A stretch of 64,000 nt of DNA. Origin: Candidatus Latescibacterota bacterium (GTDB lineage Bacteria; Latescibacterota; UBA2968; UBA8231). Shown here piece by piece: positions 8,069-44,595 of this stretch. The stretch's first letter is position 1. Every line of letters starts with the position of its first letter. The stretch lies in the NCBI GenBank assembly GCA_965261395.1, contig OZ253462.1:6144001-6208000 (forward strand). The letters are read 5' to 3'. Position numbers and translations under genes: made by a program. The notes below the pieces were generated by a model. The model saw only the letters and a list, made by a program, of their open reading frames with translations. It was not told where the DNA came from and ran no database searches.

Positions 8069-9400
8069 TTGCAGGCCATGACGGCAGCCATTCAGATCAG
8101 CGAAACAGAGCCGACCGCATTACTAAAGGATTTTTCTGAGTTCACTACTTACTTGACACATCACCCAGTGATCCTGGCTACGGCTCGGGAATTCATCGGC
8201 GGCAGGGATCTCTGTGCTCTCAACGAGGCTATGAGCGAGCCCGTGCCGGAGACGACAACCCGGACGCGCCAGACGCTCTATCCCCAATTGCATTTGTTCT
8301 ACCATCTCGCACTGGCGGGTGAACTATTTCACAAAGTGCCCGGCAAGGGTGGAAAACTCATACTCGAAGCTACGGATCGCCTCGCGCAGTACGAAGAGTT
8401 GAAGCTAACGGAACGCTACTTTTTCCTGCTGGAGACCTTCTGGGTGGATTGCGACTGGAAAAAACTGCAATCGGGCCACGGTGTCCGTCTCGATCCTCCA
8501 TACGAAGTGCCTCCGGTCATCGAGTTGCTGGGCGAGCCCGCAGCAGCAAGAAAAAAAAAGAAGTGGAAGGATATATTCGCTCGGAGCCTCTCTTCCCTAG
8601 AATACTTGGTGCTGCACCTTGCGGCATTCGGGTTCTGGCGGGTTGAACCCGATCGCGAGACCAAGGGACGGTCGAAGCACGATATCCGGTTTAAACGGAT
8701 TGAACTGACGGAGTTTGGCGCGACACTGGCACCGATCTTGGCCGGTGAGCGGGACTTTCTTCATTGGAATCTACCGACCCGGCGGCAAGCGTTCGGCGAG
8801 TGGAAGGCCAAACCAGGCGATCCACTTGACGAGAAGAGAGTTTCTATATGCCGATTAGTGACGGGGGCGAAAACGAGATTGGAGAAAAAATCTCCCGAAA
8901 TATATGGGGAACAGGCCGACGAGCCGTTTTACCAGCCTTTTGAGCCACTGGTTGATATGGAAGAACTCAAGCGCGGTTTGCCACGGAAGCGCATTGAGTT
9001 CGAGGACGGTATTTACTGTTTCAACGTTGCCTTAAAGAAAAATCTCTGGCGGCGGATTGAGACGGCGGGTGGGCATACGCTGGAGGATCTGCACCATGCC
9101 ATCCAGGAGGCCTACGGTTTCGACGACGACCATCTCTACGCCTTCTTTATGGACGGCGAATTCTGGTCCGACGACAAGTTCACGTCGCCACATGACGAGG
9201 AAGGCCCTCATGTGGACGAGACGCAGATCGGGGAGTTGGATCTGTCGGAGGGGCAGCGCATGCTCTACCTGTTCGACTACGGGGACGAATGGCTTTTTCA
9301 GATCGCGGTGGAAGCGATTCGCAAAAGCGGGGCACGACCCCACAAGCCGAAGGTCGTAGGACAGAAGGGAAAAGCGCCTGAACAATACGAGTATTATTGA
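8069..9400 (+). CDS. plasmid pRiA4b ORF-3-like family protein
   Basis: C-terminal domain LWRRIE..HTLEDLHHAIQEAYGFDDDHLYAF...YLFDYGDEWLF. Confidence 0.85.
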   Translation: MQAMTAAIQISETEPTALLKDFSEFTTYLTHHPVILATAREFIGGRDLCALNEAMSEPVPETTTRTRQTLYPQLHLFYHLALAGELFHKVPGKGGKLILEATDRLAQYEELKLTERYFFLLETFWVDCDWKKLQSGHGVRLDPPYEVPPVIELLGEPAAARKKKKWKDIFARSLSSLEYLVLHLAAFGFWRVEPDRETKGRSKHDIRFKRIELTEFGATLAPILAGERDFLHWNLPTRRQAFGEWKAKPGDPLDEKRVSICRLVTGAKTRLEKKSPEIYGEQADEPFYQPFEPLVDMEELKRGLPRKRIEFEDGIYCFNVALKKNLWRRIETAGGHTLEDLHHAIQEAYGFDDDHLYAFFMDGEFWSDDKFTSPHDEEGPHVDETQIGELDLSEGQRMLYLFDYGDEWLFQIAVEAIRKSGARPHKPKVVGQKGKAPEQYEYY

Positions 9401-9701: not shown

Positions 9702-12700
9702 TTAACTTTGACGCGGCTGGCCTACAAATTCCACTTCCCGACTACTTGATGCTTGATATCTTTCCGCCTGCATCTTGAAAAACTTGGCATAGATTCCATC
9801 GCGCTGGACCAATTCCTCGTGTCGGCCTTCCTCGCATAGACGGCCCTCGTCGAGCACTAAGATGCGGTTGGCCGTTCTGACTGTTGATAGTCGGTGTGAC
9901 ACCAAAATGGAAGTCCGGCGGCCAGCGATGTCCAACAGCAATTTGTACAACTCATACTCGGCCTCCGGGTCCATCGCCGCCGTCGGTTCATCCAAAATAA
10001 GTACTTCAGCCTCCACCTTATAGAGACAACGGGCAAGGGCCAGATGCTGCCACTGCCCAACCGACAGATCGGTACCCTCCAAAGATCGCCCCAACTGGGT
10101 TTGTAGGCCGTCGGGCAACCCCTTGAGAACGTGGTCTAAACGGGTTGCGACGACGACCTCATCTATGCCGCCATCGGTATCCTCTCGATGCATGTCGCCC
10201 AGCCGAATGTTGTCTTCTACGGTTTGCTCGTACTGGGCAAAGTCCTGAAAGACAGCCGATGTCGCCGTGAGCAAGGCATTCTGGCCATCGGCGCGAACCT
10301 CTTTACCGCGAAACAACACCTTTCCTTCCGTCGGCTCTAGCAAGCCACAGAGCAGCTTCGCCAATGTGGTCTTGCCCGCACCGTTTCTACCCACGAGAGC
10401 TATTGTATCGGAGTCATAGATGTCAAACGAGATGTCATTGAGCGCATTGCCGCGCTCCCCGGGATAATGAAAGCTGACATTTCTAAAACTGATCATGGGC
10501 TCATGTGCCGCCTGTATTCCTCGTCGCGCTTGGGATGGTTGGGCAGTCTCGTCCTCGTTTCCTTCGGGAAGGTTCATGAATTCAAAGTAGTCCGATATGA
10601 ACAAGCTGCATCGGAACAATTGGGCAATTCCATTCGCCATGAGCCTTGTCGCATTGCGAAACTGGAGCGTAGCGGCCAAACCCATGGCCAAGTCTCCGAG
10701 ACTGATGATACCTTGACTGGCGCGCAGAACGATGAAGATATAGATCCCCGCCGCAGCGGCTATGCTTGGAATATCTGCGATTATTACTATCTTGTTTCGC
10801 GCTAGGAACAGCGCGCGATTCTCGCGGTAGCACTTCTCCCAAATCGCCTTGTAGTTTGCCAGCCAGTGTTGGGCAAAACCAAAGATCCGCACCTCTTTTG
10901 CATACGCGCGATCGCACAATACCTTTGCATGATATTCAAGGCGACGACGATCCGAACTCTGATACCGGAAAAGTTCGTGACCATCGAGTATGTAGCGAAG
11001 TTGTGATAAGAAATAGGGGATTGCTGCGACGATAACAAGGAGCGAAAGCCAGCCACTAAAGAGTGAGAGAAGGGCCGCAACCGAGACGAGACCTAAGATA
11101 GAAGATATCGCTTGGAAGAGGAAAAGCGACGTGTATTCAGGCCAGCCTTTTCTTTGTTCTGCTGCTTCTATCTTGTTGTAGAACGCGCTGTCCTCATAAC
11201 AGCGATATGGAACCCTACTAGCTTTTTCTGCCAAATCGTGCTGAGCCACATAAGTGGCCCTGGGTGCATTAGGTGATTGTTACGGTTTTGGTGGTTGTTT
11301 TTAGGTTGTCTCGGTACTGCTGAAAGACCCGGTCAAGCGTTCCATTGTACAAGGCGCAACGCAGGGCAAGAATGGCGTTGCTGTTTTCCTTATACCACCA
11401 AGCGCCCGAGCGTTTCAGACGAACATGGCCGATGAAGCGATGCGCCGATTCGATCGCACCCGACCCGATCGGGTATCCGCCCTTGCGATGGCTGCCGAAA
11501 TCGACTTGATGCAATCGCTTTTGCAGGTACGTCAAGGCCGTGCCGATCGCTTCTTCGGCCTCTTCCGAGACCGCCTGCATGCGCTGCAGACCCCAAACCA
11601 CGCCGGTGCCCTCACCGCAGAACAGGCGCGCCAGAGTCGCTTCCAGCCAATGGCTGGCGCGCGCCGCATCGGTGCCGTATTGAGCCTCGGCCACCGCGTG
11701 CAGGTAGCGGCTACAATGGTAGTAGTCGAGGATCTGACGGGCGCTCGGGAACAGTTCCTCCACCCATTTCCAGATCCACGGGGCTCCGTCCCCGATGGCA
11801 CACAAGCGCACCTGCTCCTCCGGGATCAGCCCCGCCTCCTTGACCTGGCGCAAGGCCGAGCCGAAGGCCTGTTCGTCGCCCATCTGGTGCCAGGAGATCA
11901 GCTGCTCGATGCGCTCATCGTCTACCAAGTAGAAGCGAAAGCCCTTGGCTTCGTGGTATTCACCCTGCCAACGCCTTCGCCGAGCCCGGCTCTTCTTGCG
12001 CCCCGGACGAGTCCCTTTGGCGGTCTCGGGACGACTGGGCACGTCGGCCGCGTCGATGGCCAACACCACGATGGGCCGCCACTTGCGAGCGGCGGCGGCT
12101 TGAGCAATGCGATCCTGGATGTCGGCCGCGTCCGGACACACCTGCAGCACGTCCAACGACCCGGTCTGTTGCAGCACCTCGTGAATCACACAGTCGCTCA
12201 TCGACGCGTCGGTCAGCTCGTCCAGCAGCTTCGCGGCGCGCTGGTGGGGCATCTCCAGCGCCAGCTTGACCCCGGCGTTTTGAACGTCCCACTGCTTGCG
12301 GTGCCCCGACAGGCCCAGGGCCTCGTCCAGCGGATAAAAGCCGTGCTCACAGGAAACGCAGTAGAAATAGGGCCGCTCCAAGGGCACCGGCCCGAGCAGC
12401 GTCTCCACCGTGCGCGAGCGCGACGGTCGCGCACGCAGGACGCGCTCACACTTCGGGCAGGCCGCCTCTTCTTGCGCCAGGAACTGGCCGTGGCGGCGTT
12501 CGATGAAGGCTTCCACCACCGCCGCGGTAAGCCCGGAGCGCTCTTGCGACACCGCCTCGGTAATCTCCATCAACGTCGGCGGAGTAGATCCGTGCTCGCT
12601 CATTTGCGTCTCCACCCGATCCAGCAACTCGTCCAGGGCTTCATGCGCTCTACTTCGAAAGCGCGCCCACTGCTGCCGCTGCTGAAAGGGCGCCAGAGAG

Positions 12701-13193
12701 AGAATCGCAGGCATTGCTCCCCTTCTTTCTCAATCGAGGGGAGCGTGCCGCGGGGGAGGCGGCAAAAGAATAGAACAAGTTACTGTAAAATATACACATA
12801 CGTACCGAAATCGTGCCATAACAATCGGCTAAGGTGCCCAGTGGCCCTTGTGCCCAGAATCGCTCTCATTGGACGCCATAGAACATCAGTCGCCAACGCG
12901 ACGATCCACACCGCGATTTGCCCCCCCATCAACACGCCGAGCGTCGTGTACTCCATCGGCTCATTGGCCTGCCGAGCGATCCAGAGCGACTCGGCTTCAT
13001 CGACCAATAGCTTTGTGAAATAGATAGAAATAGAAACCGCAATACCATCATAGATCGTCAGCAGCATTGAAAGGATGAAATAGGCCCTACCAGCCCGCTG
13101 ATATACTTTCAGTATCTGCGGGAGGAGTGTTAAAAAACACCGCAAGCCAGATGCAACCTCGCGGAATTTATACGCCATAATGAGATCCCTCAA
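9702..13193 (-). pseudogene. ABC exporter (fused permease-ATPase) interrupted by an IS
   Basis: Walker A GRNGAGKT, signature LSVGQWQ, LILDEPT, SHRLST. Removing 11262-12839 plus one TSD copy gives continuous ...ILGTRATYVAQHDL... Confidence 0.9.
11262..12839 (-). mobile_element. ISKra4/ISLre2-like (UPF0236) insertion sequence, transposase 11269..12714
   Basis: 9-bp TSD AGTGGCCCT at 11253-11261 and 12840-12848; ends GGGTGCATTAG / CTAAGGTGCCC; motifs IGDGAPWIW, ILDYYH, GYPIGSGAIESAH, RLKRSGAWW. Confidence 0.9.
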
Positions 13194-13264
13194 ACTTAAT
13201 ACGCGACACCAATAATAATTTGCAGTGCGGCTCGGCGTTAGGTTTATTCGTTGTTGCCCAACAA

Positions 13265-14626
13265 TCAGGACCCATCACAATAAGCCATCCGCATCGGCAT
13301 CAGCACGGCAGCGTGGTGATCCTCTCCCGCCTCGAAGTGAAGGGGTGCCTCACTATGCGCAAGATATATCCGTATCTCCTCCCCCCCGTCTTTCAGCGCC
13401 TCCACAATCGTTGTGAGGAAGTCGTGATTGAGGCCGGCGCGGAATGATCCTCCATCCTCGATATTCGTCACATCAGCAGGGCAGCTCACGGAGTGCTCCC
13501 AGTCCGGGAGGTCGTCGCCGTGCAGGTCGTCCGCATTTTCTCCGTTCTGACTGAACCCCTGATCCCGCGTCGTTCGCAGCACCAGCTTCCCCTCCACACC
13601 CGACACCCGCATCTCTACGCTAGGCACGTACTCCCAGCCACTTTTCACCAGTTCGTGGCGGTCTCTGAGGAACGGCTCGATCTCCTCCACGCAGGCCATT
13701 AGGTGCTCGCTGCGCACGACCGCCAAGATCGGACCGTGGGAGCCGACGGCCTCTTGGTATTTGAGGTACGGTCCGGGAGTTGATGGCAACGTCACTCTGC
13801 AGCCGTCCGGAGTCCGCAACGTGGCAGATTCCTCTTCGATAATCAGCGTTGCCGAGTCCGTCTCCGGGACCATTCCAGCTTGCAGCGAATCGAGGATCAC
13901 CGGGGCCGGCAGCGACGCCAAACCTTTGCTCGACCAGTTGAGCAGCCGCGAGCCGTCGGTCGCGACAATCCTACCACCGGCGTCGAGACAGACGCAGTGC
14001 ATAATGGGCCGCTTGGGATCGTCGCTTGTGAAGCGAGCTACGTGACGCAATCCGGCCAGATCGTCCGGCCCGAGTTCGAATGTCTGTGCAGTGCTGGATT
14101 CCGCCATCGCCATGATCTCCTTTTGCAGGCGTTTCCGGGCCTTTTGCAGACGGCTCTTTACCACTCCGATTTGGAGGTGCAGCAAGGTTGCTGTCTGCTG
14201 ATAGGAATAGCCCTTGAGGTAGTGGTGGACGATCACGTCTCGGTGGGAGTCACTCAATCGTCCGATCGCCTTCCGCACCAACGCCCTGATCTCCTGCTTC
14301 TCCTGTTCAGGCGGTACCGCGAGGTCGAGCTGATCCAAAAGATTGAGTTGCGTCAGACGGCGCCGCTGCCACATGCGTGCTTTGTTGTCCGCAATCGAGC
14401 ACAGCCAGGCACCGAACCGGTCGGGAGCGCGCAGCTCCGCTAGCTGCTGGTACGCGGCAATGAACGCCTCCTGTAGGACGTCCTCTGCCACCTCTTGCGA
14501 GCCCAGCCTGCGGGTGAGCCGCACCAGCAACCACGGCGTGTGTTCCTCAACGAGCGAACCAAACGCCGCCGAGTCGCCAGCAGTAGCCCTCTGCACGCAG
14601 CTTTCTCCATTCCGTTCCATGGTCAC
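13265..14626 (-). CDS. ECF sigma-70 factor fused to DNA polymerase III beta-clamp-like domains II-III
   Basis: aa 1-170: sigma2 (AEDVLQEAF, FGAWLCSIA) and sigma4 (YSYQQTATLL, VKSRLQKARKRL). aa ~180-453: DnaN-like FTSDDPKRPIMHCV, VATDGSRL, GPYLKYQEAV, GLNHDFL, VLMPMRM. Confidence 0.85.
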   Translation of the reverse strand: MTMERNGESCVQRATAGDSAAFGSLVEEHTPWLLVRLTRRLGSQEVAEDVLQEAFIAAYQQLAELRAPDRFGAWLCSIADNKARMWQRRRLTQLNLLDQLDLAVPPEQEKQEIRALVRKAIGRLSDSHRDVIVHHYLKGYSYQQTATLLHLQIGVVKSRLQKARKRLQKEIMAMAESSTAQTFELGPDDLAGLRHVARFTSDDPKRPIMHCVCLDAGGRIVATDGSRLLNWSSKGLASLPAPVILDSLQAGMVPETDSATLIIEEESATLRTPDGCRVTLPSTPGPYLKYQEAVGSHGPILAVVRSEHLMACVEEIEPFLRDRHELVKSGWEYVPSVEMRVSGVEGKLVLRTTRDQGFSQNGENADDLHGDDLPDWEHSVSCPADVTNIEDGGSFRAGLNHDFLTTIVEALKDGGEEIRIYLAHSEAPLHFEAGEDHHAAVLMPMRMAYCDGS

Positions 14627-14746
14627 CCTTATAGTTGCTTCCTAGGCGACAAAGGTATCCGAAAAAAGGAGCCGTCGGGACAAATTACGCCTGCATCTTC
14701 AATTCGGTTAGTGGTTCTTTTGTAGGTTGGACGTGAATCCGACGGG

Positions 14747-15997
14747 CTAGAAATTATACATCAGGCTCAGATCAATGAAGCTGTCGCGTCGGGTCTCGTA
14801 GTGGATATCCGCTGGGTCAACATTGAGGAGATAGATCGACTCTAGATTCACAGACCACTGGTCGGCGATGCGGCGCTCCAATGCAACCGCTAAGGCGCGG
14901 GTAGCCCGGTCCACATCCCCCAGAATACTGGCGACAATTTCACTGCTCTGGACATCGTTGAGCGCAAGGCGAGCGGCGAAGAAGAGATCGTTTTCGAGCG
15001 TATTGGGCGAGCGGCTTGGGGTCGCATTGCGGCCCCGGCTATCGTAATTCCATTCGCCGAGCAGATTGAGATCGGCAGCCGAGCCAAATACGGAATAGAA
15101 CGTGTATTCGCCACCGCAAACGGAAGCAACGTAATCCTCTTCCCGGCCGGACAGGTTGCGAGCGCCAGCGCGCTGAATGGCCTCCAGCTTGAACAACCAA
15201 GAGCCGACCGTTAGCTGGGCGTCCAATCCAAACTGGCGGATCTGCGCGTAGTACTGACCTAAGGCCGGCGCGCCGCTAGCGTCCAAGAGTAGCTTCAAAG
15301 AAGGCTCCCGGCTAGTGCCGTTGAATGCGCTCACACCCAGATCGAGAAGCCCAAAACTCTGACTGTACCGAGCGGCGAGATCTACATGCCGCTCCTCGGC
15401 CTCGCTCTCGTACTCGACCTGCTCATCTTCTACCAAGAGCGGGAGACGCAAGCGACCCGCTCGGCCCGGAAAGGTGCGGGCGCGGTGGTAGGGCAAAGCA
15501 AAAAATTCCATCACCCCCCAATCACTAGACCAAGTAAAATGGACCATGGGTTGCCCCAGCTTAGCTTCGCCAGCCGGATGTTCAACGAGATCGACTTGGT
15601 TGACGATATCGACCAAGTGCTGCGATTCGGTTACGCCCCAGAACACCTGATCGACGCCCACGCGCAGCTCCCATTCGCCATCGCCGATTTCGCCGAATAA
15701 CAGCAGATAGGCTTCGCGCAGATCGGCATGAGTGCGGCGTGGGTCGGTGTTGTCGTAGCGAAAGAATGGAGCTAAAGTGAGGCTTCTACCCGCAGCGTCT
15801 TCAAGGTAGAGTTTGGGCACTGCGACAAAGCCGCTCGCATGGGAGCGCTGGTCGGGATGAGCACCAGCTTCGGGGAACCATCGGCTTTCGACGTTCAAGC
15901 GCCCGGAAAACTCGTGGTCAATCTCGGTTCCGGCGCGTGCTTCAACGGCCAAGGCCAAAATCCAGACCGCGCCGAGAGCGGCACGGAGTAGCATCAA
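14747..15997 (-). CDS. outer-membrane beta-barrel protein of the MMPL/LolA-like operon
   Basis: Signal peptide, DLREAY and VFWGVTES motifs, terminal YNF. Confidence 0.75.
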   Translation of the reverse strand: MMLLRAALGAVWILALAVEARAGTEIDHEFSGRLNVESRWFPEAGAHPDQRSHASGFVAVPKLYLEDAAGRSLTLAPFFRYDNTDPRRTHADLREAYLLLFGEIGDGEWELRVGVDQVFWGVTESQHLVDIVNQVDLVEHPAGEAKLGQPMVHFTWSSDWGVMEFFALPYHRARTFPGRAGRLRLPLLVEDEQVEYESEAEERHVDLAARYSQSFGLLDLGVSAFNGTSREPSLKLLLDASGAPALGQYYAQIRQFGLDAQLTVGSWLFKLEAIQRAGARNLSGREEDYVASVCGGEYTFYSVFGSAADLNLLGEWNYDSRGRNATPSRSPNTLENDLFFAARLALNDVQSSEIVASILGDVDRATRALAVALERRIADQWSVNLESIYLLNVDPADIHYETRRDSFIDLSLMYNF

Positions 15998-16806
15998 CGC
16001 GCCCGTTTTAGTCCGGTTTGCGTAAAATCGCGGTCGTCGAGGTCAGTCTGGAATTGAAAATCCGTCCAAGTCAGAACGGTACTTTTTCCGGTCAGATGAT
16101 TAACCATCGTCATCTCGCTAGCGCGCCAGTAACGCTCTAGGTACTGCTGGTAATTCCCCAAGGTGAGCGTCTTCAGATGGGCATCCTTGCGGTCGTAGTA
16201 CTCCACTTTCCAAACGCGCAGCTCGTCCTTGTCGCGCCAGACCACTTGGCGGCTATAGCCCGATTTCTTATCGACGGCAACGCGTTCGGAAACCGTGCAG
16301 GTCAAATCGCCGCAAGGCTCGTCGCGCAGGTAGCGGTAGGTGAATTTCTCCACGGCCGGGGCAGTCAGATCTTCATAGGCAAATTCGCTCCCCATGAAGG
16401 AGCCGGATCGATTCGACGAACTAATGCGCTTGACGCGTTTCAGAGCGGGTAGATAGAGCCATTGATCGTCCGCGCTTTCCCCATGCGAGTGAATGAGCAA
16501 CGCCGTTCCCTGGACATCGCGCGGCTCATCAAACACAAACAGACTCTTGTCACCATCTTCGGCGACTTCAAGAATTTTTACCCGGAGCTGGCGTCGGCTC
16601 TCTTGTCCGTGTTTGTTGCGCAGCACCATGATTTGCTGGGCCGTAAAGTTGCCAAAGCCTTCCTCGCGAGCGCGGGAATCTTGGGCGATTTTCAGCCCGG
16701 TTTCCTCGGGGGTGGCATTTTCGGAATGGGTGGGTGCCGCGCCAAGACAGGTCAAAATGATCAGACAACGCGCGAAAAACGACAGCATTGGTCGTGCGGG
16801 AATCAT
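15994..16806 (-). CDS. outer membrane lipoprotein-sorting protein (LolA-like)
   Basis: DDQWLYLPALKRVKRISS..SGSFMGSEFAYEDL; ATG at 16806 is coupled to the MMPL stop. Confidence 0.88.
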   Translation of the reverse strand: MIPARPMLSFFARCLIILTCLGAAPTHSENATPEETGLKIAQDSRAREEGFGNFTAQQIMVLRNKHGQESRRQLRVKILEVAEDGDKSLFVFDEPRDVQGTALLIHSHGESADDQWLYLPALKRVKRISSSNRSGSFMGSEFAYEDLTAPAVEKFTYRYLRDEPCGDLTCTVSERVAVDKKSGYSRQVVWRDKDELRVWKVEYYDRKDAHLKTLTLGNYQQYLERYWRASEMTMVNHLTGKSTVLTWTDFQFQTDLDDRDFTQTGLKRAR

Positions 16807-18441
16807 GAATTTCTCCGGTCGATGGCAATCAGCAGCGTCGGAAGAAGTAAAAAGTCGGCAGCAAGCGCGAAGAGGATCGTCATCGTGACCAAAAGCCCGA
16901 GTGCCCAACTTACCTCAAATCCCGATGTGGCGAACACCAGAAAGCCTGCCGACAAAACGGCGCTCGTCGTCCATAACGCATGGCCCACAGTGCGAAAGGC
17001 GGAGCGCACGGCCTCGGGTGCTGGAAGGCCCTCGCGCCGGGCCTTCAGATATTTGCTCAGAAAATGAATCGTATCGTCCACGACAATTCCGAAGACAACG
17101 GCGATCACTACCGACGTAGCGGTCATCAAAGTACTGGGCCATGTTGTCGCTTAGCTCAATGCGGGGAATGCCGAATATTAGCACAACAACAATCAAGGTG
17201 ATGGCCCCAAGCAGGAATGTACTGCGGGCAATTACAAAGTCGGCAAAGCGGTCGAAGAAGGCCGTTCCCTCGGACTGAACAAGACGCACGCGCAATGGCA
17301 GAATCGAGAGCAATGCCGGCAGGAGCGTCATGGTATATATGAGAGCGCATAATACGCCAAACGCCACGTAGTTGCCCAAGACGTGAAACGGCGGCGAATC
17401 CGAGGCATTCAGGCTGAGGAATCCAATCGCCGTGGTGACCGAGGTGATGAATACCGGATAGGCATTGATGCGAATCGATTCGACAATCGCCGCGTTTCTA
17501 TCCAGACCACGTCTCATGCCCAGTAAAACACTCGTGACGATGTGGATTGAATCCGCGATGGCTATCACCATGACAATGATCGGCACGCCAGCGTTGGTCG
17601 GGCTGAACACCACGCCGTTCCAGCCGGCGAATCCCATAGTGGTATTGATGACAAACACGAGTACGGCGACGATGGCCACGGTGCCGAGAACCGAGCGCAG
17701 GAGAATAATTGTGACACCTATGATGATGAGAAATACAATAGGTGTCAGGGTCTCCATGTCGTTCTGGGTGGCATCGGAGAAAGTCCGGTTCATGACGACA
17801 TCGCCGGTCATGTAATAATTGATTCCCGGGTGGTCCGTGCGGGCTTGCTCCAGAAACGAATTGAGATAATCGGTAATTTCGACCACGGCCTGATCTGGGT
17901 TTTCAGGCAGGATGAAATTGATAGCCACTCCGGTCGTGCGTCCGTCGTGAGCGACCAGACGCCCGGCAATTGCAGCCGCATCCAGCGCGATCTTTTCGAT
18001 GCGCACCACATCGGCATCGCTCAGTGCATGCGCGTCCTCGACGAGCGGGGCGACAATGAGTTCATCCTCAAGGGCTTCGCTATGGGTATAGTTAGTGAGG
18101 GAGTTGACGCGACTGGAATAAGGCGTGCGCCACGCAGCTTCGGTCAATTCCTCAATCGCGCCAAGCGCCTCGCGGGTGAACACCGAACCCTCGCGCGGCG
18201 CAATAGCAATCAGGGCCGTATTGGAGACGGAGTACGTGTTCTCCAAGGCGTTGAAAGCGGCGAGTTGCGGATTGTCTGCGCTAAACAGAACGTGGTAATC
18301 GTTGGTAACGGTGATGAAGCGAACACCAGCCGTCATAGCCAGCATGACCAGCGTTGCGAGCGCAACGACCAGCCAGCGACGGCGCAAAATGGCGGCGATG
18401 TAGCGTTCCAAGCGCAAAAGAGTCGCCCCCTCGACCGTCAC
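16803..18441 (-). pseudogene. MMPL/RND family transporter with an internal deletion and frameshift
   Basis: First repeat intact (IAIADSIH, TSVTTAIGFLSL). After YFDDRY the sequence jumps, in another frame, to SVVIAVVFGIVVDDTIHFLSKY, so most of the second periplasmic/TM repeat is missing. Confidence 0.85.
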
Positions 18442-18584
18442 CGGCTAGGTGCGGTGATGAGGTTATCGACTCGAATGCGCGGTGCTACCGATTCCGTCAA
18501 CAGCAGATAACTTCGTTCCACCTGGACGGTTCCCTCGCTTCCTGTTAGCGGACGGAGGTGGTCACACCACGGCGCGAGCATCGC

Positions 18585-19589
18585 TTACCAAGGGCTGGAT
18601 TCTGATGTATGGACGTGGTCGGGCATCTTGTAACTCACTCCATCCTCGTCGTACACCGAGATTTCGATAAGCTGAGAAAAATTTTCTGACCTGACCACCT
18701 GTTTGGCCTTCAGAAGTCTCAGGAAGCGTTGTTTCCATCGGTAACTAAACAGTGTTCCCGCAGCAAAGGACTTTGGAAACTCGAACTGGTCAGCGAGTTC
18801 GTTTCCTATGAGGGCGCGCGAAAGGCGGTAGGCCAGAGTTGTCAATTTTTTCTGTTCAACAGGATCTGTTACATCCGCAACTGTCGGAATGGCCTGGATC
18901 AACATATTCGCCACGGTTACCGATTCGGGCGACGGCGGCGGCTCGCACATATAGGCGATCTTGTAAATTTTTTCCGCATCCTCTGCGTTGGTATAGAGGA
19001 TGGTCTCAGGTATCCCCATGAGATAGTCGCTGTAGCGCCAAATACTGAGAACACTCGCTTTTTCTTCCTCGTTGAAATTCGCGCCCACCAACATCGAGTA
19101 GTTCAACAGGCGCTTGGAGAAGACGGAGATGGCAAAACCAAGGTGCGCCGAGCTTATCGGTATGCCCCAAGCATCGTGATCCCAATCGTCGGATTTCGCC
19201 AGCAGGGTCCTTATTTGACTATGAACGAAGCGAATGCGCGTGGATAGCCTGTACCCATCGCCATCTCTCCGCAAGCCGCCGGGGTAAAAAATATCCATCA
19301 TGTGGCGGTTATTCTGCTGGAGGCGCCTTTTGGTTGACGCTACCCGCCCGGTAATATTGAACGACTTGGCGATAAGCGTCGAAAAACCTTCCACCAGCAC
19401 CCCCGTAACGAATGCGACGAGCATGAGGTCTACGTTTGCGTGGAAGGCGCGTCTCCCCGGACGAAAGGCTTCGTAGTCGAGCCAAGGAGGCTCTGCAAGA
19501 TTTTTGAAGAAATCGCGCAGGGCCTGCGGCGCCTGGCGCAGAACCTCATCCTGTTGCTCTATGCCAGCCTGGATGAAATAGATTGTCAA
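18585..19589 (-). CDS. MpaB/DUF2236 (rubber oxygenase-like) family protein, probably 5'-truncated
   Basis: PPWLDY, RIRFVHSQIR, WGIPIS, WRYSDYLMGIP; TTG start with no clear RBS only 11 bp from the upstream stop. Confidence 0.75.
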   Translation of the reverse strand: MTIYFIQAGIEQQDEVLRQAPQALRDFFKNLAEPPWLDYEAFRPGRRAFHANVDLMLVAFVTGVLVEGFSTLIAKSFNITGRVASTKRRLQQNNRHMMDIFYPGGLRRDGDGYRLSTRIRFVHSQIRTLLAKSDDWDHDAWGIPISSAHLGFAISVFSKRLLNYSMLVGANFNEEEKASVLSIWRYSDYLMGIPETILYTNAEDAEKIYKIAYMCEPPPSPESVTVANMLIQAIPTVADVTDPVEQKKLTTLAYRLSRALIGNELADQFEFPKSFAAGTLFSYRWKQRFLRLLKAKQVVRSENFSQLIEISVYDEDGVSYKMPDHVHTSESSPW

Positions 19590-19600
19590 TTATTCTACTC

Positions 19601-20905
19601 TCACACGAACTTCGGCCGGCCACAGCCGTCGTTGACCACGTAGCTGCGCGCTGGAATCGCCGCTTGATCGGGAATGACTAGATCGAGCGGCGAATCATTC
19701 TCAATGACGGTGCCAGCCCCCACGCGCACCCCGGCCCCCAATTTAATCGCTCCGGGCCGCACAGGACCCGCTATGATCGTGCCGATAGATACCGACACGC
19801 CGATTCGGCAATCCGGGCCGATCGCGACGATGCCGTTGATTTCGGAGTTGGCCCCAATCACCGTGCGGTCGCCCACCGGCACGGGGCCGAAAATCCCGGC
19901 ATCCGTGCCGATAAACACGTAGTCGCCAATGGTGGGATGGCGCTGCTGCACCTTGCCGCTGAGGCCGCCCAAAGTACACGGGTACATGTGGCACCCGCTG
20001 CCGATGATACCCGTCTGTCCAGTGGTTATGCCGCGATGGGGATGGTCGAGGAAGTTGGCATCACCAATCTGCGTTTCGGGATGGATATCCGCCTGGTAGT
20101 AGCGCCCCCCCAACTCGGCAATGGCTCGCGGCAGCAAGGGCACCGGCCGCCGCGTCAGCTCGGATTCGCCCGCCACCGAGCCAGCGCGCGTTAGGGCGTG
20201 GGCAATGTCGTGGTAGAATAGCACCCGCCAGCCCGGATAGGTGCTCATCACAAGCTGCATCTGGTAGTCGAAAATGAAGTCGCACTCCAGCGCGGCGAGA
20301 AAGCGGCGATAGTGATCGAAGTCGCGGCGGTGAATGGTCTCGTCCAAGGCGGCCCGGAAGTCGATCTTGAGCAGCCGTTCCTGAGTTAACCCGCAATTGT
20401 CGAGCAAATAGGCGTCCCAAACGGCCGGATCCCTAAGCGCGGCAAAGCGATTCCAGCGGGCACGCACCTTGTAGTCGGGCAGTTCCCACAGCAAGCAGAA
20501 GGTGCTCATCAGGGCCTTCTCTTCAGCACCTTCGCTCTCGCCGGCCGCCGAAAGCGACTGCGCGATCATCGCGTAGAGCTGGTCGGCGATCTCGCCGATG
20601 GCCTCGTCGAGCGACGGGTTTTGGTGCCCCGGCCCCAAGGCATTGTGCGAGCCAGGGGCGACGCATTCGAGCAAGTTGCCCAAAACCGTCTCCAGCAGGT
20701 CGCGGTCGACAAAACCGCGCCCGGAGCGCTGCGAGAGAATGTCCCGGTCCACCGCGTCGATGCGCAGCGCGGCAACCTCCTCCAAGGTGTAGATCGGCAC
20801 CAGCCGCTCTAGCAGCCGCTCTAGCAAGGCCCACTTGCGGCGTTGATACGCAGTGTCGAAAAGCGTGGAATTGCTCATAGTTTGCTCCCCATTTTGCCTC
20901 CTCAT
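19601..20905 (-). CDS. serine O-acetyltransferase-like left-handed beta-helix protein with a long N-terminal extension
   Basis: ADIHPETQIG, LDH, TLGG..QRHPTIGDYVFIG; extra hexapeptide turns at the C-terminus. Confidence 0.7.
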   Translation of the reverse strand: MRRQNGEQTMSNSTLFDTAYQRRKWALLERLLERLVPIYTLEEVAALRIDAVDRDILSQRSGRGFVDRDLLETVLGNLLECVAPGSHNALGPGHQNPSLDEAIGEIADQLYAMIAQSLSAAGESEGAEEKALMSTFCLLWELPDYKVRARWNRFAALRDPAVWDAYLLDNCGLTQERLLKIDFRAALDETIHRRDFDHYRRFLAALECDFIFDYQMQLVMSTYPGWRVLFYHDIAHALTRAGSVAGESELTRRPVPLLPRAIAELGGRYYQADIHPETQIGDANFLDHPHRGITTGQTGIIGSGCHMYPCTLGGLSGKVQQRHPTIGDYVFIGTDAGIFGPVPVGDRTVIGANSEINGIVAIGPDCRIGVSVSIGTIIAGPVRPGAIKLGAGVRVGAGTVIENDSPLDLVIPDQAAIPARSYVVNDGCGRPKFV

Positions 20906-43975: not shown

Positions 43976-44064
43976 TCTTTGAACGAAATTGCGGCCTCAT
44001 CCGTATAAATAAATAGATATGAACAATATCAGGGCCGCAGGCTAAAACTCGTCTGGATTCCCCG

Positions 44065-44595
44065 ATGGGCTGGAGCGACGAAGCATTGATGGAAAATCTC
44101 CGCCAAGGAGATATGCAGGCGTTTGACGAACTCTACACGCGCCATCGCCAGCCCCTTTTCAATTTTATCTTTCGGCTCTTGCAGGACGCGGCCTTGGCAG
44201 AAGATGTGTTTCAGGAGACTTACATGCGCGTATTGGAAAACGCCGACCGCTTCAACCCTCGGGGCAAATTTTCAACCTGGCTCTATACCGTGGCCCACAA
44301 CCTGTGTATGGACGAACTGCGCCGCCAAAGCATGAGCATTCCTGCCGAGCAAATGGCCATGCCGCCACCGGCTCGCGGCCCCCACGACCATTTGCTCAAA
44401 CGAGAAGACGAAGAAGCCGCACACCAACTGCTCGCGGCCCTGCAACCCCACTTGCGCGCCGTCGTCGTCCTCCGCGTCCTGCACGATTACTCGCAGGAAG
44501 AGACCGCGAAGATTGTCGGGGTACCCGTCGGAACCGTCAAAAGCCGTTTGCACCACGCCCTAAAACAACTGCGCCAACTGGCACCGGACCCATGA
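44065..44595 (+). CDS. ECF RNA polymerase sigma factor
   Basis: AEDVFQETY, FSTWLYTVAHN, GTVKSRLH. Confidence 0.93.
   Translation: MGWSDEALMENLRQGDMQAFDELYTRHRQPLFNFIFRLLQDAALAEDVFQETYMRVLENADRFNPRGKFSTWLYTVAHNLCMDELRRQSMSIPAEQMAMPPPARGPHDHLLKREDEEAAHQLLAALQPHLRAVVVLRVLHDYSQEETAKIVGVPVGTVKSRLHHALKQLRQLAPDP

Follow-up and report, generated by a model that had tools for sequence, protein, structure and literature searches.

Extracytoplasmic function (ECF) sigma factors that carry additional domains are known in several forms; the main text of Casas-Pastor et al. 2021 (PMC7826278) describes, among others, ECF41 with its SnoaL-like extension, ECF42 with tetratricopeptide repeats (TPR) and the Cys-rich ECF238, and also gives precedent for extensions that contact the sigma core. 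Sliding clamps, for their part, are reported to be coupled to transcription in two phages: in T4, the gp45 clamp acts together with gp55 and gp33 (PMC7892883, PMC2988020), and in Mu, the MuC protein couples to the host beta clamp through motifs of the QL[SD]LF type, which is the bacterial clamp-binding consensus (PMC12867686). The gene described here lies in a 64,000-nucleotide stretch of a Candidatus Latescibacterota genome (contig OZ253462.1, positions 6,144,001 to 6,208,000; the whole stretch is called the window below) and encodes an ECF sigma core followed by a C-terminal module that is descended from domains II and III of the bacterial beta sliding clamp, DnaN. We regard this architecture, a sigma core plus a two-domain clamp-derived module, as very nearly certain, and the fusion is both real and conserved, and apparently undescribed. 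Neither the main text of PMC7826278 nor that of a review on non-canonical ECFs (PMC8999054) mentions clamp, DnaN, DNA polymerase or Latescibacteria, and full-text literature searches gave nothing relevant linking ECFs to the sliding clamp, DnaN or DNA polymerase III. A preliminary description of the window, which knew of no ECF group with such an extension, thus agrees with the main texts of the ECF literature, though the classification supplement on all 19 extension-bearing groups may list one.

Like the extended ECFs of PMC7826278, at least as its main text presents them, the protein has a minimal sigma2-linker-sigma4 core of a distinct lineage, an extension of more than 50 amino acids (aa) beyond sigma4 (here 278 aa, conserved in its lineage) and no anti-sigma gene nearby; unlike any of those described, its extension has the fold of two beta-clamp domains. 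The open reading frame (ORF) given in the preliminary description is borne out and lies on the minus strand, and all five clamp-like motifs quoted there occur in the translation, in the same order. Since an ATG lies at 14620, two codons into the longest ORF, and the DNA just before it is conserved in relatives, the product is taken to be the 451-aa protein of Table 1. Its N-terminal 170 aa are a standard group-4 (ECF) sigma core. Regions 2 and 4 both match their Pfam families, with the Sigma70_r4_2 (PF08281) match spanning aa 116-167; the gap between them is only about 25 aa, and regions 1.1 and 3 are absent, as is usual for ECFs; and the match to the sigma70-ECF model TIGR02937, at 84.9 bits, is well above that model's cut-off of 42.9. 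Among the NCBIfam models, no equivalog or subfamily model more specific than TIGR02937 reaches its own cut-off for this protein, and in public records its relatives bear only general names ("sigma-70 family RNA polymerase sigma factor", "hypothetical protein", "ECF subfamily").

The homology of the module to the beta clamp is far beyond chance, though it is hard to see from one sequence. Searched singly, the 278-aa module has no Pfam match even at E<=10 and only a weak match in the PDB, to the C-terminal strand of DnaN (E 0.27); TIGR00663 matches the window protein at E 0.025, with 13.5 bits, below the family cut-off of 137.65. PHROG 947, a phage DnaN-type processivity factor, matches the module at E 3.1e-14. 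A profile of 35 family sequences, by contrast, matches beta clamps in the PDB at 4e-19 to 1e-16 (1e-19 to 1e-16 over the family profiles as a whole); a module-only profile matches 55 PDB sequences, all of them beta clamps, with E. coli beta residues 123-270 and 309-366 in the alignment; and hhalign of the module against the genome's own DnaN, of which it covers residues 155-384, gives a probability of 98.7 and E 3.3e-16. The assignment of this region to clamp domains II and III in the preliminary description thus finds no single-sequence support from Pfam, and stands on the profiles and on hhalign. It stands also on structure prediction. The AlphaFold2 (AF2) model of the module has a predicted local distance difference test score (pLDDT) of 94.1 and a predicted template modelling score (pTM) of 0.91, beta clamps are all of the top Foldseek matches listed (E about 1e-14), and VIA-align places model residues 1-272 on E. 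coli beta 120-366 -- domains II and III in their native mutual orientation -- with Z 20.2-23.9 and a root-mean-square deviation (rmsd) of 2.4-3.2 Å over 227-237 aligned residues, at an overall identity to clamps of only 11-19%. Some relatives carry a precomputed PF02768 match; ESM Atlas scores, only 0.80-0.83 toward DnaN-like clusters, are leads and not evidence, and PADLOC gave no match.

Domain I is absent, the residues preceding the module being the sigma core, and the protein therefore does not have the three domains of a DnaN; a separate canonical dnaN is present elsewhere in the genome in one copy (TIGR00663, 285.8 bits against the same cut-off). Pfam, profiles and the AF2 model agree in this respect with the architecture first proposed, an ECF core with DnaN domains II and III and without domain I. 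The domain II-like half was placed by profile alignment to E. coli beta 123-270 and by VIA-align.

Table 1. Features of the sigma/clamp-like fusion gene and of the adjoining exporter locus, in window coordinates; aa numbers of fusion-protein features count from the GTG ORF.
Feature	Position	Strand	Details
ECF sigma/clamp-like fusion CDS	13265..14620	minus	451 aa from conserved ATG, stop codon included
Longest ORF of fusion gene	13265..14626	minus	opens with GTG at 14626
Sigma-70 region 2	14357..14554	minus	aa 25-90; Pfam PF04542 (Sigma70_r2), E 1.7e-12
Linker motif QLNLL	14336..14350	minus	aa 93-97, just after region 2.4; resembles QL[SD]LF
Sigma-70 region 4	14120..14281	minus	aa 116-169; PF08281 E 1.9e-11, PF04545 E 1.8e-07
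Clamp domain II-like half	13730..14101	minus	aa 176-299; RPIM, VATDGSRL (aa 221-228), PGPYLKY; approximate boundary
Clamp domain III-like half	13286..13729	minus	aa 300-447; RH..GW.Y.P.VE, DW, C-terminal LNHDFL and LMPMRM
Promoter-like motif GGATACCT-N14-GCAACTATA	14630..14660	minus	directly upstream of start codon
MsbA-like ABC exporter, 5' fragment	12840..13178	minus	about 113-118 codons; tblastn to intact L008 gene
ISKra4-family insertion sequence (IS)	11262..12840	minus	about 1579 bp, inside exporter gene; transposase ORF 11269-12714; NF033572 E 1.1e-72
Exporter, 3' part	9702..11249	minus	MsbA model positions 148-570; TIGR02203 E 3.3e-71; ABC_tran; tblastn to L008

The fusion is not a one-off, many homologues sharing its architecture; the fused relatives gathered number roughly 100. 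A search with the module gave 48 clusters at 90% identity, 46 of which have sigma-70 Pfam domains, with identities from 95% down to 32%. Exhaustive phmmer against 1.84 billion representatives gave 77 matches, in 32 of which the alignment begins past residue 140, leaving room for a sigma core; and sigma core and module are both covered in 51 of 61 loci on contigs taken from one genome per species. Exactly one full-length fused copy, with an open frame of 422-511 aa, is found in 64 of 168 Latescibacterota genomes, many of the 64 being single-contig chromosomes; the weaker module matches in the 168 genomes are canonical dnaN. The notion that the fusion is an artefact of assembly or gene calling, or a decaying pseudogene, can point to copies that are truncated (L026/G131 and L029/G108) or deleted (L101) and to one with a single in-frame TAG (G060). 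It is refuted for practical purposes by these counts of clusters, loci and genomes, and with uninterrupted frames in 64 genomes, one and the same sigma-plus-module architecture at identities from 95% down to 26% and both halves conserved among relatives, its chance is vanishingly small. The deleted copy, a decayed metagenome member (L101 2990-4095), has region 2 and then a deletion in which sigma4 and roughly the first 43 module residues are lost.

The carriers are nearly all Candidatus Latescibacterota metagenome-assembled genomes (MAGs), some of them labelled Gemmatimonadota. Outside Latescibacterota the fusion turns up sporadically, in Verrucomicrobiota (one case each in Terrimicrobiaceae and Opitutaceae), in Lentisphaerae (again one) and in Ca. 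Handelsmanbacteria, after which one relative protein is named; none of 400 further Verrucomicrobiota genomes has a match at E<=1e-18 (6 candidates per genome being scored). Within the window's own genus, the fusion is present in 21 of 31 genomes, truncated in 1 and missing from 9, and this patchy presence makes it an accessory gene. Nine of the 77 phmmer representatives look like full-size stand-alone modules, while no stand-alone copy was found in the 168 Latescibacterota genomes. The stand-alone candidate P0060 was set aside: it comes from a contig of 969 bp, and the relatives nearest to it, at 42-56% identity, are all fused. It has no match in phage collections, and in plasmid collections it matches one plasmid dnaN at 23.6% identity. 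A metagenome scan with P0051 turned up only a fused copy from which an internal part is deleted and L100, a shorter locus that gives the same match.

The clamp-fused gene of several relatives adjoins other ECF genes with TPR or pentapeptide-repeat extensions (L021 6177-11713, L034 6799-7554, L031 6243-7061, L101 4457-5850). Such differently extended neighbours suggest that extensions are shuffled on related sigma cores in Latescibacterota; other ECFs of these genomes, with their TPR and pentapeptide extensions, are in this like the known extended ECFs. The window's genome has 12 ECF-like ORFs, three of the others with C-terminal parts of 146-445 aa, and a second, short ECF-like sigma ORF lies in the window itself at 44023-44592 on the plus strand (genome 6188023-6188592).

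The segments best shared by the family, E. coli beta and the genome's own DnaN are R-P-x-L, VATDG(H/S)RL, G-x-Y-x-x-Y, N-x-x-(Y/F)-L and (L/V)-M-P-x-R, which in clamp-peptide complexes form the partner-peptide pocket between domains II and III. When 19 pocket positions of the clamp were mapped by hand on the profile alignment, 13 were identical in the family consensus and 10 in the window protein. Among 35 diverse relatives, M268 and P269 in the last strand of the module are invariant and G50 is nearly so; apart from W201, the first two are the sole invariant residues. The fold of domains II and III is thus accompanied by the pocket motifs, and a pocket is probably present in the module.

We favour the view that the module serves as a C-terminal regulatory extension like those of ECF41 and ECF42, which would make the fusion protein a self-contained "one-component" sigma factor without a separate anti-sigma factor. 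Such a module would no longer encircle DNA and would have kept the clamp's peptide-binding pocket, the occupancy of which would set whether the sigma2/sigma4 core engages RNA polymerase and promoters. That the retained pocket, on binding a peptide, controls the sigma core is a proposal drawn from sequence comparison and modelling, and we judge the chances for and against it to be evenly balanced. No anti-sigma gene was seen among the neighbours at 49 loci, where no search specific to weak or novel anti-sigma domains was made.

The pocket could, alternatively, be inert, its motifs serving to hold the fold, with the module regulating or stabilising the sigma core, or contacting RNA polymerase, through other surfaces. 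There are candidates for these: domain III has conserved RH, GW.Y.P.VE and DW motifs that are family-specific and lacking in clamps, and several of the most conserved module positions (W201, H149, Y158, P160, G182) are likewise family-specific and lie outside the pocket. The middle of domain III is also too diverged for profile alignment with DnaN, and the position equivalent to E. coli H175 varies. Against such a scaffold stand the invariance of M268 and P269, which they share with W201 alone among the 35 sequences, and the fact that all five pocket segments are still recognisable at 11-19% identity; we consider it doubtful, while worth keeping in mind. Returning to the regulatory pocket, the same motifs that speak for it could have been retained through inheritance rather than function, because they coincide with the parts of DnaN whose structure is most conserved.

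Two-domain architecture is that of the trimeric clamps, and the module might for this reason still be a clamp, three copies forming a PCNA-like six-domain ring, or the module joining the host clamp on DNA, so that the sigma factor would be anchored to DNA and activated through tracking, in the manner of T4 late transcription. The domains are indeed oriented as in beta (at the rmsd given above), and the T4 gp45/gp55/gp33 and Mu MuC systems (PMC7892883, PMC2988020, PMC12867686) are reported cases of clamp-dependent transcription. The helices that would line the channel, however, speak against this. In the genome's own DnaN the DNA-facing helices have PAVRRVS and ILRRM, and the aligned module segments have CVEEIEP and IVEALK; the module equivalents of these helices hold 2 K+R against 9 D+E, and the isoelectric point (pI) of the module is 4.71. 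The loss of basic residues argues against DNA encirclement, the inner-helix equivalents being acidic or neutral where a closed ring would have basic ones, and at the 49 loci neither a dedicated clamp-loader gene nor one for a partner is conserved nearby. A three-copy complex prediction of the module, run without controls, scored 0.21 and 0.08 (mark 0.42) and speaks neither for nor against a ring. On balance, a module that still works as a clamp seems improbable. It shares with DnaN the fold and orientation of domains II and III (Z as above) and the motifs VATDG.RL, G.Y..Y, N..(Y/F)L and MP.R; it differs in the missing domain I, in its score (13.5 against 137.65 bits), in the acidic channel helices, in the insert motifs of domain III and in the fusion to sigma.

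The most economical candidate for a ligand of the putative regulatory pocket would be the protein's own sigma2-sigma4 linker, which carries the motif QLNLL. At this same site, the pattern Q-[LMV]-x-[LWF] recurs in almost every fused relative of the alignment: QLDLL, QLRLE, QLRWE and QVEFD occur elsewhere in the family, and QLRLF in one relative, while four neighbouring ECFs with TPR or other extensions are without the motif. From these alignments the motif goes with the clamp-like extension, yet it could be a lineage trait of the sigma core, since it is degenerate in distant members and a similar motif occurs in another ECF of the genome (see below). An intramolecular latch may be envisaged that would keep the ECF core off (or on), opened or closed by other ligands of the pocket or by binders of the clamp motif, and we advance it tentatively, as something rather unlikely on the sequence evidence. 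That the latch would be shifted by competition -- the beta clamp binding the linker motif, or proteins and clamp-targeting natural products binding in the pocket -- so that an envelope-directed regulon would be coupled to the state of the replication machinery, is a further step, and an unlikely one.

Directly upstream of the start codon lies a promoter-like motif (Table 1), of which GGATAC(C/T)T, 13-14 bases and GCA(A/T)CT(A/G)TA are kept in three clades whose flanking sequences are otherwise unrelated. Its -35-like block resembles the GGAAC of ECF-type promoters. We infer that the motif, in its consensus form GGATACYT-N13-14-GCAWCT, is the promoter of the sigma gene, and it suggests autoregulation, with the sigma factor probably driving this promoter itself. 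In the window's clade, only about 10 bases separate the end of the -10-like block from the ATG, and the transcript may therefore be nearly leaderless, and GGGTGA stands 3 bases before the ATG; in a second clade there is a leader of about 60 nt with GGAGG. A scan for terminators and sigma-70 promoters around the sigma gene gave nothing useful.

Across the 168 genomes, the motif is far commoner than its backward control. In the window's 6.55-Mb genome, the strict form has one match, the sigma promoter (and it is the sole match in the window), against 1 in the reversed-genome control; a looser form has 9 matches against 2 in the control, of which the sole intergenic and correctly oriented one, before a luciferase-like monooxygenase gene, was unconvincing. 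Early guesses at the motif (TGTCCCGAC...CGGATAC and others) had been dropped, with 7 matches against some 13 expected by a hand estimate made without a control. Ten congeners have a second near-copy, and in all four of those examined (G145, G143, G137, G123) it lies 150-200 nt upstream of the same gene, a 756-aa ORF of the CBM9/DUF5916 type with a signal-peptide-like start (L112 563-2866, and L115, L116 and L117). This second copy has the same -35 and -10 blocks as the first, with differences at several spacer positions, and the one in G137 retains about the first 35 nt of the sigma coding sequence. With its invariant blocks and diverged spacer, it looks like a duplicated promoter kept under selection, and the exported CBM9/DUF5916 protein is a candidate member of the regulon; in some congeners the sigma factor may also drive this duplicated promoter. 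The other recurrent sites in congeners were dismissed, as they fall inside coding sequences or right where these begin (in L111 an hsdS-like gene, in L114 a 541-aa ORF).

Several observations weigh against the regulatory-pocket proposal and its latch. As regards the pocket, the E. coli H175 position is variable in the family, and three of the pocket positions differ (P242, V344, S346). As regards the linker, its motif degenerates to Q-h-x-(L/W/F) in distant members, and one of the 11 other ECF-like ORFs in the window's genome has QVAFD. The full-length AF2 model, from a 16-row alignment, is only moderate (pLDDT 76.5, pTM 0.62) and shows no confident packing between domains; linker residues 96-107 fall below a pLDDT of 50, and the linker is not confidently docked in the pocket. 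Lastly, no regulon is defined in the window's genome, as the strict motif occurs there once, and the genome's orthologue of the CBM9/DUF5916 gene (G000 5951516-5953675, 90.8% identical) is without the second promoter copy.

The surroundings of the gene were compared by clustering the ORFs within 6 kb at the 49 loci, and no neighbour gene is common to the three clades. On the downstream side, close relatives mostly have an enoyl-CoA hydratase gene in convergent orientation. Members of the second clade carry a transglutaminase-like gene upstream, and genes for a nucleotidase and for HU downstream. By Pfam, the window's own neighbours are DUF1302, LolA-like, MMPL and ABC exporter proteins. The preliminary description had proposed the co-directional ABC exporter 71 bp downstream as a likely target of the sigma factor. 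An ORF does begin there, with a TTG at 13193 (an ATG at 13178 being the likelier start), but it is not an intact gene: after the first 118 codons or so it is interrupted by an insertion sequence of the ISKra4 family, beyond which the rest of the exporter resumes (Table 1). The element has terminal inverted repeats at 11249-11285 and 12816-12852, and the genome has seven copies of it, all of them listed at 100% identity, which suggests recent activity. RNA-library contig X18 is an exact match to the end of the element and diverges at 12840. A plus-strand gene for a PRiA4_ORF3-like protein (window 8069-9400, Pfam E 1.1e-22) lies just past the broken exporter.

It was thought that the pocket might sense an external clamp ligand, a griselimycin-type antibiotic or free clamp-binding peptides, and switch on this adjacent exporter. 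The retained pocket motifs would fit such a scheme; no terminator-like site lies between the sigma gene and the exporter, which leaves read-through possible, and an intact exporter gene of 615 aa is found at the same place in L008. But the exporter stands directly downstream in only 2 of the 49 loci (the window and L008), most close relatives having the enoyl-CoA hydratase gene there, so the link is not conserved; L010 has an exporter 38-45% identical, 3.5 kb away. The exporter is moreover split in the window, no sigma promoter-like motif was found before it in searches of the genome and window, and an RNA-library contig of a close relative diverges just past the sigma stop codon, at 13248. 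The adjacency is a local accident of gene order, and the exporter as a sigma target has little to recommend it; a pocket that senses such ligands and thereby switches on the exporter is quite improbable.

RNA-library contigs from three studies contain pieces of the gene, 92-98% identical, that correspond to 13282-13557, 13775-14247 and 13929-14384; such contigs are silent on transcription, strand and start, with DNA carry-over possible and no meaning in the parts left uncovered, and they are compatible with transcription of the fusion gene in close relatives. Upstream in the window, between the sigma gene and a hexapeptide-transferase gene (19601-20905), lies a minus-strand cassette (14747-19589) with an MpaB-like oxygenase, an MMPL/RND-like transporter, a LolA-like protein and DUF1302; about half of the close relatives have it and the others do not, which makes it a variable insertion beside the sigma gene.

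Extra DnaN paralogues, known from the griselimycin literature, confer self-resistance to antibiotics that target the clamp. The window's module is like them in belonging to a second clamp-derived gene besides the housekeeping dnaN, with the peptide pocket as the relevant feature; it is unlike them in that they are full three-domain clamps which replace the target, whereas it has two domains and sits on a transcription factor. The comparison with T4 and Mu likewise runs both ways. There, too, a protein of promoter specificity or activation is coupled to a clamp through a clamp-binding motif and a pocket, and the window protein has both the pocket module and a motif-like linker; but the phage systems use a separate, complete ring on DNA, acting in trans, while here a fragment that looks incompetent to form a ring lies within the polypeptide of a cellular sigma factor.

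Among sigma factors, extended ECFs play the part of "one-component systems", and every further type of extension has revealed a new input logic. One derived from a clamp is unexpected, and would be a rare recruitment of the clamp fold, without its ring, as a regulatory domain, with a resonance in phages T4 and Mu, where clamp-binding motifs are the means by which clamps activate transcription. The hypothesis lends itself to direct testing with reagents already at hand, as the pocket of the clamp is a validated antibiotic target for which peptide and small-molecule ligands are known. If the latch is real, clamp logic would here be built into promoter selection for the first time outside phages, in a family confined mainly to uncultured Latescibacterota, many of whose MAGs are labelled as sponge-associated bins and in which regulation is almost uncharted.

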